Below are positions 5,651-11,666 of a stretch of 11,666 bases of DNA, in pieces. Each line of letters starts with the position of its first letter. Within the stretch, counting starts at the first letter, position 1. Source of the stretch: a virus (lineage: Duplodnaviria; Heunggongvirae; Uroviricota; Caudoviricetes); the IMG/VR virus record IMGVR_UViG_2700989428_000001; one strand, given 5' to 3'. A program made the position numbers and the translations under genes. Under the pieces are notes generated by a model. The model worked only from the letters and a program-made list of their open reading frames with translations, was not told the origin of the DNA and made no database searches.

Positions 5651-6160
5651 ATGTCTTCGGATGCTGATGCTCACAAAGTGGGCTTAATCCCCGTCACCCT
5701 GATGGTGTCGGGGAATATTATGGGGTCAGGTGTTTTTCTGTTACCTGCAAACCTGGCCTCCACTGGCGGGATTGCTATTTATGGATGGTTGGTGACGATT
5801 ATCGGTGCGCTGGGGCTCTCGATGGTATACGCCAAAATGTCGTTCCTCGACCCAAGTCCTGGTGGTTCTTACGCTTACGCCCGCCGCTGCTTTGGCCCGT
5901 TTCTCGGTTATCAAACCAACGTCCTCTACTGGCTGGCCTGCTGGATCGGCAATATCGCCATGGTGGTCATTGGCGTAGGATATTTAAGTTACTTCTTCCC
6001 GATTCTGAAAGATCCATTGGTATTAACCATCACCTGCGTCGTGGTGCTGTGGATCTTCGTCCTGCTGAACATTGTCGGTCCGAAAATGATCACCCGCGTA
6101 CAGGCCGTTGCTACCGTGCTGGCGCTGATCCCCATCGTCGGGATTGCCGTATTTGATTAG
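5651..6160 (+). pseudogene. adiC: arginine:agmatine antiporter, truncated: native sequence for codons 1-168 (to nt 6155), then foreign DNA supplies D-stop
   Basis: Translation [40 protein letters not shown]...[11 protein letters not shown] matches the AdiC N-terminus (APC transporter family). Native AdiC is about 445 aa and continues GWFWF... after this point, whereas here the sequence switches to attagacttgag... with a TAG at 6158-6160. Confidence 0.85.
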
Positions 6161-6316
6161 ACTTGAGATAAATGACAGGGAATAAGTGAGATATTTATGG
6201 GAAGAACTGGGTCAAAATGGGAAGAGACTAGGAGGAATATGCAATAACCTTACAGTATGTGAAAATCAGACCGGCCCGAAAAAAAAACAGAACTCGCGCC
6301 AGCCTGATTGCAGATA

Positions 6317-6706
6317 TTACTCTTTTTTCTCCGTATCTGCATCGGGTTCATCAGCAAATAGCTTGCCCTGCATCCGATCCAGTTCTTCTTTTCTTACCCG
6401 CTTAACCACGCTGTAGACCCACTGAAGCGAAACACCAAATTTGCGGGCCAGTTCGTGGTGGTTGCGTCCGTTAAACTCCCTGAAGATTTCCCGGTCGCGC
6501 TGACTGACCTTCCATACCATGCCCATCGGGAAATAAACGTTTTGCCCGCCCCAGACCTGCATCATTCGGTTCGCGACGGCCTGACCAATCTGGTCGGCAA
6601 CTTCGGGCTCAATATCAATAATCTCGCGAACGGTCTCAGAGGTATGCTGTGCCAGTTCCACCAGGAGTTCCGGCCCCTTACTTCGAAACTGATTCAGGTC
6701 GCTCAT
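6317..6706 (-). CDS. Mor/C-family-like small transcriptional activator (middle-operon-regulator position)
   Basis: 129 codons (MSDLNQFRSKGPELLVELAQHTSETVREIIDIEPEVADQ...FNGRNHHELARKFGVSLQWVYSVVKRVRK...), with GGGAG 6 nt upstream. Size, acidic N-terminus, C-terminal HTH-like segment and position after a GemA-like gene fit Mu Mor. The assignment is from recall, not a search. Confidence 0.55.
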   Translation of the reverse strand: MSDLNQFRSKGPELLVELAQHTSETVREIIDIEPEVADQIGQAVANRMMQVWGGQNVYFPMGMVWKVSQRDREIFREFNGRNHHELARKFGVSLQWVYSVVKRVRKEELDRMQGKLFADEPDADTEKKE

Positions 6707-7127
6707 GTTTGACTCCCGCAGCTCTGCGCTGCCACTTCTTCAGTTTCTCAATAACACTGCTTGCCTGTTCAGTACTGAGCCAGCGCAGGGCGCTGATGCC
6801 CGTTTCCCGCTTGATCCACCTCGCTAATGCATTTTCTGAACGGTCACGAACAATGCCGGCAGCAGCCATTTCAAGCCATAGCGCACGAATTTTCCTGGAC
6901 TGCGGATGGTTATCAAGCGGTAAACCGGAGCTGGCTTTTCTGGCTGGTTTAACGCGAAAGCCTTTCTTTTTCATGGATTCCAGCACGCAGTTTAGTTGTG
7001 TGGTATCCATTCCTTTGGTTGAGGCTTTACCGGTCAGCCCCTGTAACATCTGGCGGTAGGTGTCTTCATCCATACCCAGTTCATTACGGGCAATATGGAT
7101 AAGCTGTATCAGGCGTTTTTTCTGCAT
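6678..7127 (-). CDS. GemA-like (Mu gp16 / DUF1018-type) regulatory protein
   Basis: 149 codons (MQKKRLIQLIHIARNELGMDEDTYRQMLQGLTGKASTKGMDTTQLNCVLESMKKKGFRV...), with GGAG 5 nt upstream. Its 3' end overlaps the next gene by 29 nt. Position immediately upstream of the Mor-like gene is as in Mu. Confidence 0.5.
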   Translation of the reverse strand: MQKKRLIQLIHIARNELGMDEDTYRQMLQGLTGKASTKGMDTTQLNCVLESMKKKGFRVKPARKASSGLPLDNHPQSRKIRALWLEMAAAGIVRDRSENALARWIKRETGISALRWLSTEQASSVIEKLKKWQRRAAGVKHERPESVSK

Positions 7128-7128
7128 A

Positions 7129-7335
7129 TCATCTCCTTTTTTTCAGTCTGTCGGCAACAATGTCGGTTGCAGCTGGCAGGGTGACTGGCCAGAACAACAT
7201 GACGGCGGTCATGTACAGGATGTAATGCGCGGTGTCGTAGTGCCTGCCATAGCCCAGGGAACGATGAAGTCTTGCGCTGCATGATCCTGCGTACATATAC
7301 CAGAAAAGAAAACAGACAATGGTTTCAGTAGTCAT
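7129..7335 (-). CDS. small hydrophobic (membrane) protein, 68 aa
   Basis: Internal start MTTETIVCFLFWYMYAGSCSARL... is preceded by GGAGG with an 8-nt spacer. The stop is 1 nt before the GemA-like ATG. The 120-codon six-frame ORF is probably an over-extension. Confidence 0.4.
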   Translation of the reverse strand: MTTETIVCFLFWYMYAGSCSARLHRSLGYGRHYDTAHYILYMTAVMLFWPVTLPAATDIVADRLKKRR

Positions 7336-9859: not shown

Positions 9860-9886
9860 ATTTTATGACTCCTCCTGTTGTGCTGA

Positions 9887-10156
9887 TTACCACAAAGATT
9901 CCGGCCACACGACGCGACAGCCGTGCAGTTCGAAAACGCCCTGACGGAAATGTCCCCTGTGGTCATGACCGGTATACAGATAACAGGCCTTTCCCTGCTC
10001 AAGCATGCGCATGCAATGCGCACTCCGGGAAACGCGGATGACAGGTTTGTTACCCCTGATGGTGATGCTTTGTACATCCGTGTTCGTCGCCTTAAGCGCC
10101 ATAATGGCTGACTGCACTTTGCTGATTTGCTGGTTGATACCTGTGGTGGATTTCAT
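9887..10156 (-). CDS. hypothetical protein, 89 aa, in the position of Mu kil (between B and gam); His/Cys-rich C-terminal half
   Basis: MKSTTGINQQISKVQSAIMALKATNTDVQSITIRGNKPVIRVSRSAHCMRMLEQGKACYLYTGHDHRGHFRQGVFELHGCRVVW. It starts 2 nt after the B-like stop. Function is unknown. Confidence 0.45.
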   Translation of the reverse strand: MKSTTGINQQISKVQSAIMALKATNTDVQSITIRGNKPVIRVSRSAHCMRMLEQGKACYLYTGHDHRGHFRQGVFELHGCRVVWPESLW

Positions 10157-10158
10157 TA

Positions 10159-11325
10159 TTAAACCCCTTTGACAACGTCAGCGTTGACCTGTGGAACCCC
10201 GATTTCAGCGGCCAGATTCATGGCGGCTATTACCAGGTTACTGACGGCCAGCGGATACAGCAGGCTGACCATATTTTTACGATGACTTCCCGGATTGCTC
10301 AGGCGGGCACGTATGGCATCCACTGCGCTGGCGTCCATAATGTCCGTCAGTTGTTTACCGGCCCGTTGCAGTTTGAACGTCAGAAACTCTTCAAGGTTAT
10401 TGTCCAGAGGCAGAAGTTCGACCACCTCACAGCGCTGAACGACTTCACGGACTTCCATATTGCGTTCAGACAGTTTTGTCGCCAGTTCCGGCTGGCCAAT
10501 CAGCACGATGGACAGCAGTTTTTTGAAACCGGACTCCAGCTCAAAAAAGCGTTTGAGGTGTTTCAGTGTCGGAATGGGCAGACTGTGGGCCTCCTCAATC
10601 ACCAGAACGTGGCTGAACCCCGCCTGGCTGCTGTCTTTCAGGACGCGATGCAACTGGCGAAAGCGGGCGTCCTGACTGCGTCTGATGCTTTCCAGTGGTG
10701 CGATGGTACTGATAATGGCTTCGGCAATCGCTGCTGCCTTCAGGGTTTTCCCTTTCACATCGTTGTCTTCCATAGCGATGATGTATGGCTCGATAACAAT
10801 TACCGGCGCATTCTCGCGGTTGATACGTTCAGTCAGGTCGCGGCGCAGCGTGGATTTACCCGCACCGGACTCACCGATGACGGCCATAAACCCACCATGA
10901 CGGGCTGTCTGGTACAACGCCTCACGCACGTAGCGAATATCCGGGGTGGTGAACACATCATCAGAACCCTGCATGGCTTCGTCGGCGAACGGGTCACGGA
11001 AAAGACCAAACGCTTTTTTGGTTGCTGGAAATAACACCTGTTTTTTGAGTAACATATTCTCTTCCTCACTGAGGCTCGTTTTATCTGTGGTACCCGCTGT
11101 ACGGGGCGTGGCCGCGCCCTGTACAGCATCAAAACTCTTCGTTGTATCAATCCCCTGACTTTCCAGCCAGGACGCAAGACGCCGGCGCACTTCTCCGGGG
11201 CTGGTGCGGGGCCACGCGTTATGATTCACAATCTGGGCCAGCGTGGCCTCAGAAACATCGACAGCTCTCGCCACCACCGCCTGTGGAATACGGGCCTCTT
11301 TCAGTTGCTGCTTCAGTACCAGCAT
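10159..11325 (-). CDS. Mu B-like transposition ATPase (AAA+ target-DNA activator) with N-terminal HTH-like segment
   Basis: Walker A GESGAGKS, Walker B-like hhhhIEEAH (HVLVIEEAHSL), and an N-terminal IPQAVVARAVDVSEATLAQIV HTH-like stretch. ATG at 11325 is preferred because GGAGG lies 5 nt upstream; the six-frame track starts at a GTG at 11364. It directly follows a transposase-like ORF. Confidence 0.7.
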   Translation of the reverse strand: MLVLKQQLKEARIPQAVVARAVDVSEATLAQIVNHNAWPRTSPGEVRRRLASWLESQGIDTTKSFDAVQGAATPRTAGTTDKTSLSEEENMLLKKQVLFPATKKAFGLFRDPFADEAMQGSDDVFTTPDIRYVREALYQTARHGGFMAVIGESGAGKSTLRRDLTERINRENAPVIVIEPYIIAMEDNDVKGKTLKAAAIAEAIISTIAPLESIRRSQDARFRQLHRVLKDSSQAGFSHVLVIEEAHSLPIPTLKHLKRFFELESGFKKLLSIVLIGQPELATKLSERNMEVREVVQRCEVVELLPLDNNLEEFLTFKLQRAGKQLTDIMDASAVDAIRARLSNPGSHRKNMVSLLYPLAVSNLVIAAMNLAAEIGVPQVNADVVKGV

Positions 11326-11335
11326 GTTTCCCTCC

Positions 11336-11666
11336 TCAGTTGCCGTTAACAATGCTGATAACACTGCTGCGGGCCGGTGTGGTCAGCGTGGCCATGACTT
11401 CATCCAGTGCGGCTTCCGGTACGCCGTCCGGGTACTGTGCCGTTAACTGGCGGTAATGTTCCGGCGTCCAGGTAAGGCCGTCGGCGCTGAACTTATCGCG
11501 CAGGGCTTTCGCGGCCTCCACATGAGTCATGGGACGTTGTTCAGTGCGCGGCCCGCGTACGTCAGAGGCCTGACCACGCTTCGGCATATAGGCCGGAAGT
11601 GTGGTGTCGTCGATATGTTTATACGGGTCAAGCCGCCCGCCGAACGGCAGCGCCTTCGCCTTGCTT
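11336..11666 (-). CDS. C-terminal ~110 codons of an upstream gene, probably Mu A-like DDE transposase (partial; 5' end beyond window)
   Basis: The frame is open from the window edge to the TGA at 11336-11338 (...LDPYKHIDDTTLPAYMPKRGQASDVRGPRTEQRPMTHVEAAKALRDKF...SVISIVNGN*). The call rests on position immediately upstream of the B-like gene; no catalytic motifs are visible in this fragment. Confidence 0.45.
   Translation of the reverse strand, partial: SKAKALPFGGRLDPYKHIDDTTLPAYMPKRGQASDVRGPRTEQRPMTHVEAAKALRDKFSADGLTWTPEHYRQLTAQYPDGVPEAALDEVMATLTTPARSSVISIVNGN

Follow-up and report, generated by a model that had tools for sequence, protein, structure and literature searches.

A BcepMu-type transposable prophage that very probably interrupts adiC in an Escherichia coli contig

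The DNA analyzed here (the window) is a stretch of 11,666 nucleotides, filed as the viral record IMGVR_UViG_2700989428_000001; it represents the whole contig AOQB01000082.1 of the assembly GCA_000397225.1, and the prefix AOQB01 is that of Escherichia coli TOP379 in a genome note (PMC5060011). Positions 1-6153 are host DNA, namely the melA'-melR-adiA-adiY-adiC region of E. coli, with 97-98% identity to strain K-12. Positions 6154-11666 carry phage genes on the minus strand; with high confidence, they make up the left 5.5 kb of a BcepMu-type prophage (genus Bcepmuvirus) of ~37-37.6 kb that entered adiC, the gene for the arginine:agmatine antiporter, at codon 168 by DDE transposition, in an E. 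coli lineage of uropathogenic type. An earlier reading, made from the letters of the window (the sequence-only reading), had described here a Mu-like transposable prophage truncating adiC; its observation is confirmed, and this core of its interpretation is supported.

The adiC gene starts at 5651, and positions 5651-6155 are identical to nucleotides 1-505 of K-12 adiC. The 168 N-terminal residues are the same as in K-12 AdiC, and the sequence past 6155 is unrelated to the gene, just as had been read from the sequence (native through codon 168, nucleotide 6155). The apparent end of adiC is at 6155/6156, and the true boundary of the element lies 2 nt earlier, at 6154; the gene appears native through 6155 because the phage tip TG equals the next two adiC bases. 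Strictly, the host 5' part of adiC occupies 5651-6153 on the plus strand (codons 1-167 and 2 nt; identical to K-12 AdiC residues 1-168). The fused open reading frame (ORF) at 5651-6160 encodes 168 AdiC residues and one Asp, followed by a TAG stop at 6158-6160, i.e., 169 amino acids (aa). This product aligns with residues 1-168 of the 445-residue AdiC in PDB 3LRB (E=6e-105); hence, the claim that adiC is cut by an inserted prophage is borne out.

Four separate Logan run assemblies contain the adiC-phage junction in base-identical form, and a 40-kb sister contig from ENA/NCBI (L004) has the phage at this position of adiC too, with a variant of the phage tip. Because the same junction occurs in independent assemblies, it is real and not an assembly chimera. 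The window and L004 are otherwise near-identical, with 2 mismatches over 7 kb, and the assemblies that share the junction therefore represent one insertion event in one lineage. The junction is present in none of the 5,426 complete E. coli genomes, as searched by megablast with positions 5651-11666.

The phage part is common. In the same search it is found at 99-100% identity over 5,511 bp in 619 of the 5,426 complete genomes (~11%), the match always starting at the same first query base. The flanks were read in nine of these 619 genomes and in the deposited phage PhiKM. Ten element sequences, the window included, all begin TGATTAGACTTGAG... beside unrelated DNA, and the left start shared by every copy is TGATTAGAC.... 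Besides adiC, the insertions fall in a lambdoid tail gene, in the tcyJ/fliZ interval, in a ydaT-cro prophage region, and next to cmoB, yibQ, araH, cysE, and ylbE; in the PhiKM record, the left end adjoins an unrelated flank of non-phage sequence. An additional copy, in strain ECKH-100, interrupts ytfK; the chromosome record of this strain, NZ_CM181230.1, is cut 2 bp before the phage tip (L003 end/L002 start). The left end reads TGATTAG... and the right end ...GCGCGGCGCATCA, so that the tips are TG...CA, the form stated for BcepMu-like phages (PMC2628397); the right end may also be given as ...GCGCATCA. Clean 6-bp target duplications, GTCACC and TTTCAG, flank the element in two complete genomes. 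Since ten copies start at the same base, with TG...CA tips and 6-bp duplications, position 6154 is the true end of a transposon and not a deletion scar. The ten different sites are consistent with the near-random insertion expected of a Mu-like element. The sequence-only reading had expected the phage terminus beyond c/ner, past 11666; this does not hold, the terminus being the junction at 6154 itself and the other end lying ~37-37.6 kb away. It had also counted the lack of a phage terminus upstream of the window as a reason to drop the prophage call, a rule by which a correct call would have been wrongly rejected.

The left terminus (6154-6213, plus strand) comprises the TG tip at 6154-6155 and two G-GATA--T motifs 23 bp apart, GAGATAAAT (6165-6173) and GAGATATTT (6188-6196). 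No gap is needed to align its first 60 bases with the right end (as reverse complement) and with either BcepMu end; the TGA tip is invariant in this alignment, and the two motifs are in register. By analogy, the motifs are likely transposase-binding sites. In the sister contig, at 6040-6075 (corresponding to 6154-6180 of the window), the insertion point in adiC is the same and the phage tip reads TGATTAGACCTGGTTCCGAGATGAAATGAC. Compared base by base, this tip is a hybrid of the phage end and the corresponding stretch of native adiC (CTGGTTCCG, TGAAA); reads from occupied and empty sites could have been merged into one consensus, or the first putative binding motif could carry a real mutation.

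By analogy with the GTCACC and TTTCAG duplications of other copies, a simple insertion in adiC is predicted, carrying a 6-bp target-site duplication CGTATT with its left copy at 6148-6153 (unstranded) and its right copy outside the window. The right-hand junction in adiC is then predicted to read ...GCGCGGCGCATCA, CGTATT, TGGCTGGTTCTGG..., in this order. The predicted 3' remnant of adiC is an ORF of 267 aa, and exactly this protein is present on 91 contigs; a homologue search with it returned cluster representatives only, none of them diagnostic.

The phage segment (6154-11666, minus strand) is an early operon directed toward the phage end, and it stops at the end of the contig. Nearest to the terminus is the gene for a Mor-family transcription activator of 129 aa (6317-6706; PF08765, E=1.3e-43), its stop codon 163 bp from the terminus at 6154; it is followed by that for a GemA/gp16 family protein of 149 aa (6678-7127; PF06252, E=8.3e-41). 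Then come two small phage ORFs of 68 aa (7129-7335; PHROG 6436, E=2e-45) and 76 aa (7325-7555; PHROG 3681, E=6.5e-55), a DUF2786/DUF7168 protein of 227 aa (7552-8235; PF23771, E=1e-25; PF10979, E=4.4e-11; PHROG 421), and four small early ORFs of 71 aa (8232-8447; PHROG 3958), 98 aa (8462-8758; named in RefSeq as a nucleoside triphosphate pyrophosphohydrolase family protein), 90 aa (8768-9040), and 64 aa (9037-9231), which together span 8232-9231 and have no Pfam match above threshold. Next is the Gam host-nuclease inhibitor of 176 aa (9329-9859; PF07352, E=1.1e-40), and a small ORF of 89 aa (9887-10156; PHROG 2041, E=1e-36; 'HI_1482 family protein' in RefSeq). The AAA+ transposition ATPase of 388 aa (10159-11325; PF13401 AAA_22, E=3.6e-20; PHROG 296 'DNA transposition protein', E=2.2e-93) is B-like by role and belongs to the ExeA family by sequence. 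At the end of the window lie the C-terminal 109 codons of a DDE (rve) transposase (11336-11666; PHROG 310 'transposase', E=2.4e-10), which in the sister contig is complete, with 589 aa and an rve domain. All these genes are on the minus strand, and the other small ORFs of the segment all match phage-only PHROG families. Thus, the genes named from the sequence, i.e., Mor, GemA, Gam, a B-like AAA+ protein, and a transposase C-terminus, were recovered by Pfam and PHROG profile searches. No Rfam match was found in the window. A terminator scan of 6156-6316, from the mor stop to the phage tip, yielded no terminator-like hairpin; therefore, transcription of the early operon could leave the prophage and read antisense into the 5' remnant of adiC.

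Comparison by tblastn (with a hit threshold of E<1e-3 against Mu) places the element close to BcepMu (NC_005882; Summer et al. 2004, summarised in PMC2771037). The order of the early cluster matches BcepMu genes 1-9 gene for gene, and protein identity is 68.5% for the transposase (to gp09, over 581 aa), 59% for the AAA+ protein (to gp08, over its full length), 54% for Mor (gp01), and 44% for GemA (gp02). As in BcepMu, the left end is followed by bottom-strand Mor, GemA, and further genes up to the AAA+ protein, the rve transposase, and a DUF3102 protein; then by a divergent repressor and by lysis, head, and P2-like tail genes; and in both phages each end carries two G-GATA--T motifs in register, the tips being TG...CA. 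In BcepMu, genes 1-13, including regulators and the transposase, are on the bottom strand, the control region is at genes 16/17, and the lysis, head, and P2-like tail genes lie past it (PMC2771037). The BcepMu transposase belongs to the Tn552/IS1604 lineage, unrelated to MuA, with a terminal CA, and the virion ends carry random host DNA (PMC2771037, PMC2628397). The element of the window accordingly shows the features of a BcepMu-like phage: an rve transposase homologous to gp09, an ExeA-type AAA+ protein beside it, and a bottom-strand early cluster directed toward the left end, with Mor and GemA terminal. There are also differences. BcepMu lacks a Mu-type Gam, having other genes in its place, whereas the E. 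coli phage has Gam; it also lacks the Gin-type invertase and the invertible tail-fibre segment of the E. coli phage (PMC2771037), and its own acyltransferase gene at the right end is missing from the latter. At the nucleotide level, similarity to BcepMu is ~70%, and is confined to short stretches.

With Mu (NC_000929) the element shares the general lifestyle, i.e., that of a temperate transposable phage with near-random insertion, TG...CA tips, and knock-outs of host genes, and also the collinear early order A, B ... gam ... gemA, mor. Identity to Mu proteins is 61.5% for Gam, 36% for GemA, 30-32% for Mor (against Mu Mor and C), and 76% for Gin. However, the Mu map starts at the left end with c, ner, A, and B, continues to gam and further on to gemA and mor, and only thereafter reaches the late genes; hence, the early operon of the element is inverted relative to the phage end. 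The terminal sequences differ as well, and the target duplication is of 6 bp rather than the 5 bp of Mu. The transposase and the AAA+ protein have no tblastn hit to Mu at the above threshold, and hence none to MuA or MuB. Pfam finds only rve in the full transposase and no Mu-specific domains, and PDB sequence searches give weak generic hits with no MuA chain for the transposase and only weak generic P-loop hits, with no MuB, for the AAA+ protein. Neither a MuA-type transposase nor a MuB homologue, a left-end repressor-ner-A-B block reading inwards, or a 5-bp duplication, i.e., the marks of the Mu genus (Muvirus: Mu, D108, SfMu), was found in the element. The proposal of a Mu-type gene order is thus right for gene content (A-B-...-gam-...-gemA-mor) but not for the Mu layout, which is replaced by that of BcepMu; similarly, of the predicted similarity to Mu-family Gam, B, and A proteins, that of Gam stands, while the transposase and the B-like protein are homologues of those of BcepMu and are unlike MuA and MuB.

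Full copies of the prophage in complete genomes have 36,954-37,565 bp. Their minus strand, read from the left end, encodes Mor, GemA, the small ORFs, Gam, the AAA+ protein, the rve transposase, the DUF3102 protein, and a helix-turn-helix (HTH) protein. The plus strand encodes a divergent CI-type repressor, accessory genes, holin/transglycosylase/spanin, terminase, portal, and head genes and, more distally, a P2-like contractile tail, an invertible tail-fibre segment, and, at the right end, a Gin-type invertase. The last is the sole recombinase, no tyrosine or serine integrase gene being present at either prophage end. As the sequence-only reading anticipated, the DNA past 11666 should encode the remainder of the transposase, together with a Ner-like HTH protein and a repressor; in place of a Mu-type left end, ~26 kb of lysis, head, and tail genes should follow the repressor. 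The phage is mosaic, being of the BcepMu type with a Mu-like Gin (76% to Mu Gin; L002 36917-37489) and a Mu-like Gam (9329-9859). The early region is itself interrupted in some genomes, e.g., in Ec-U4 (NZ_CM192147.1, 3505990-3514476) by ISEcp1 with blaCTX-M-15, and in others by the IS66-family ISEc23 (several genomes) or IS1.

Among named phages, Escherichia phage PhiKM (PQ738613.1, Bcepmuvirus, from uropathogenic E. coli) is the nearest, with 99.1% nucleotide identity over the 5.5-kb segment. PhiKM and the prophages of the 619 genomes agree with this segment in gene content, gene order, and left terminus, at up to 100% identity; the insertion site alone differs. The element is thus already known, and BcepMu-like prophages are routinely reported in E. 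coli, e.g., as a 36.8-kb 'BcepMu' region in a uropathogenic genome (PMC10955171), as Bcepmuvirus prophages in ST131 (bioRxiv 10.1101/2022.05.07.487787), and as Bcepmuvirus phages induced in isolates from the human gut (PMC12629997); what is lineage-specific is the adiC target alone. A literature search for adiC together with Mu-like phages returned nothing relevant.

By analogy with Mu and BcepMu, the rve transposase would bind the terminal motifs and pair the ends, the AAA+ protein would capture and deliver target DNA, and strand transfer with a 6-bp stagger would produce the target duplication. Upon induction, the phage would replicate by repeated transposition, with Gam expected to protect linear DNA ends and Mor to switch on the next stage of phage transcription.

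The host part of the window shows several local oddities. A 29-bp insert at 2854-2882 splits adiA into ORFs 2045-2989 and 2890-4344; its first 22 bp are a copy of the sequence that comes next, and it is absent from L004, which has an intact adiA of 756 aa, and from K-12. The insert is probably a draft-assembly error, and a genuine adiA pseudogene, of the kind seen in Shigella-like decay, was rejected as a probable artefact, given this absence. The AT-rich adiA-adiY spacer contains tandem duplications of 44 bp (4489-4532) and 29 bp (4588-4616), which L004, K-12, and the Logan contigs all lack; they account for odd repeated peptides in the ORF list. Relative to L004 and K-12, there is also a scrambled patch at 1501-1518 in melR, 6 bp longer (MelR of 304 aa vs. 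302), and a 1-bp indel at 858; both look like local assembly noise.

Other explanations for the junction were considered. On the map of Mu, mor lies ~9 kb inside the genome with the late genes next to it, and the window contains early genes only, as would be the case for a truncated remnant of a classical Mu-type prophage that had lost its late region, with 6154 as the deletion breakpoint. But ten copies at unrelated sites begin at the same base, with TG...CA tips and 6-bp duplications, and either end of BcepMu can be aligned with the tip; the late genes lie on the other side of the repressor in full copies, BcepMu having the same layout; and L004, which shares the adiC junction, extends over 40 kb. 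The deletion breakpoint was thus rejected on the shared first base of the ten copies and the alignment of the tip with the BcepMu ends, and such a remnant is very unlikely. We consider it equally improbable that the element truly belongs to the Mu genus (Mu, D108, SfMu) and uses MuA and MuB. The identity of Gam to Mu Gam, the relatedness of GemA and Mor to those of Mu, and the far-end invertase with 76% identity to Mu Gin do point in this direction; yet the transposase and the AAA+ protein do not match Mu, the former has an rve domain only and finds no MuA in PDB, the duplication is of 6 bp and not 5, and the early region has the opposite orientation with respect to the end.

The imperfections of the contig that are missing from the sister contig and K-12 (the 29-bp adiA insert, the two tandem duplications, and the scrambled melR patch) mark it as one of imperfect quality, and could suggest that adiC was wrongly joined to a prophage from elsewhere. 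Against such an artefact, the junction is base-identical in the four Logan run assemblies, recurs at the same position, with the variant tip, in the 40-kb contig, and falls exactly at the true terminus of the element; a misjoin therefore has a barely appreciable probability. The same applies to site-specific integration, with adiC as the attachment site of an integrase-type prophage: two assemblies have the element at exactly the same adiC position, but they are near-identical and reflect one event, the junction occurs in 0 of the 5,426 complete genomes while the element is seen at ten different loci, and the Gin-type invertase is the only recombinase gene near the ends, with no tyrosine or serine integrase at either. 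Such integration is exceedingly improbable.

Several points weigh against a BcepMu-type prophage transposed into adiC, which remains the preferred explanation. The window ends inside the transposase gene of this copy, and the right end followed by 0-10 nt and the continuation of adiC has no match in the three contig collections scanned (viral, genome, and metagenome). One of the three duplications examined is imperfect, namely that of the ytfK copy in ECKH-100 (GTTGGGC vs. GTTGGC, with one extra G where the record has its origin); the extra G is likely a circularisation or homopolymer error. Finally, it is from homology that we infer transposition, transposase binding at the terminal motifs, and the effect on acid resistance.

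One may further speculate that the adiC knock-out is a retained, and perhaps selected, loss of arginine-dependent acid resistance in a lineage persisting in the urinary tract or gut, and that occupied and empty adiC sites are mixed in the population behind L004. The former could be suggested by AOQB01 being listed as TOP379 (PMC5060011) and by several read sets sharing the junction, the latter by the hybrid left tip of L004; we regard this reading as improbable. If true, mixed sites would mean that a phage type thought almost never to excise precisely does excise or is still moving.

For the knowledge of transposable phages as such, the finding alters nothing, being an ordinary knock-out by a known phage. 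For annotation, it means that a widespread 'Mu-like' prophage of E. coli is of the BcepMu type, with its terminus beside mor; hence, host DNA next to mor marks a genuine phage end and is no sign of a deleted prophage. For the host, it is a clean case of a gene knocked out by a transposable phage. Substrate-binding residues of AdiC on later helices, e.g., Trp202 and Trp293 in the AdiC structures, would be lost. Because AdiC is cut to 168 of its 445 residues and such residues would be missing, arginine/agmatine exchange, and hence arginine-dependent acid resistance, should be abolished; the strain, which belongs to a clinical E. coli lineage, is predicted to lose the arginine:agmatine exchange step of acid resistance system 3.

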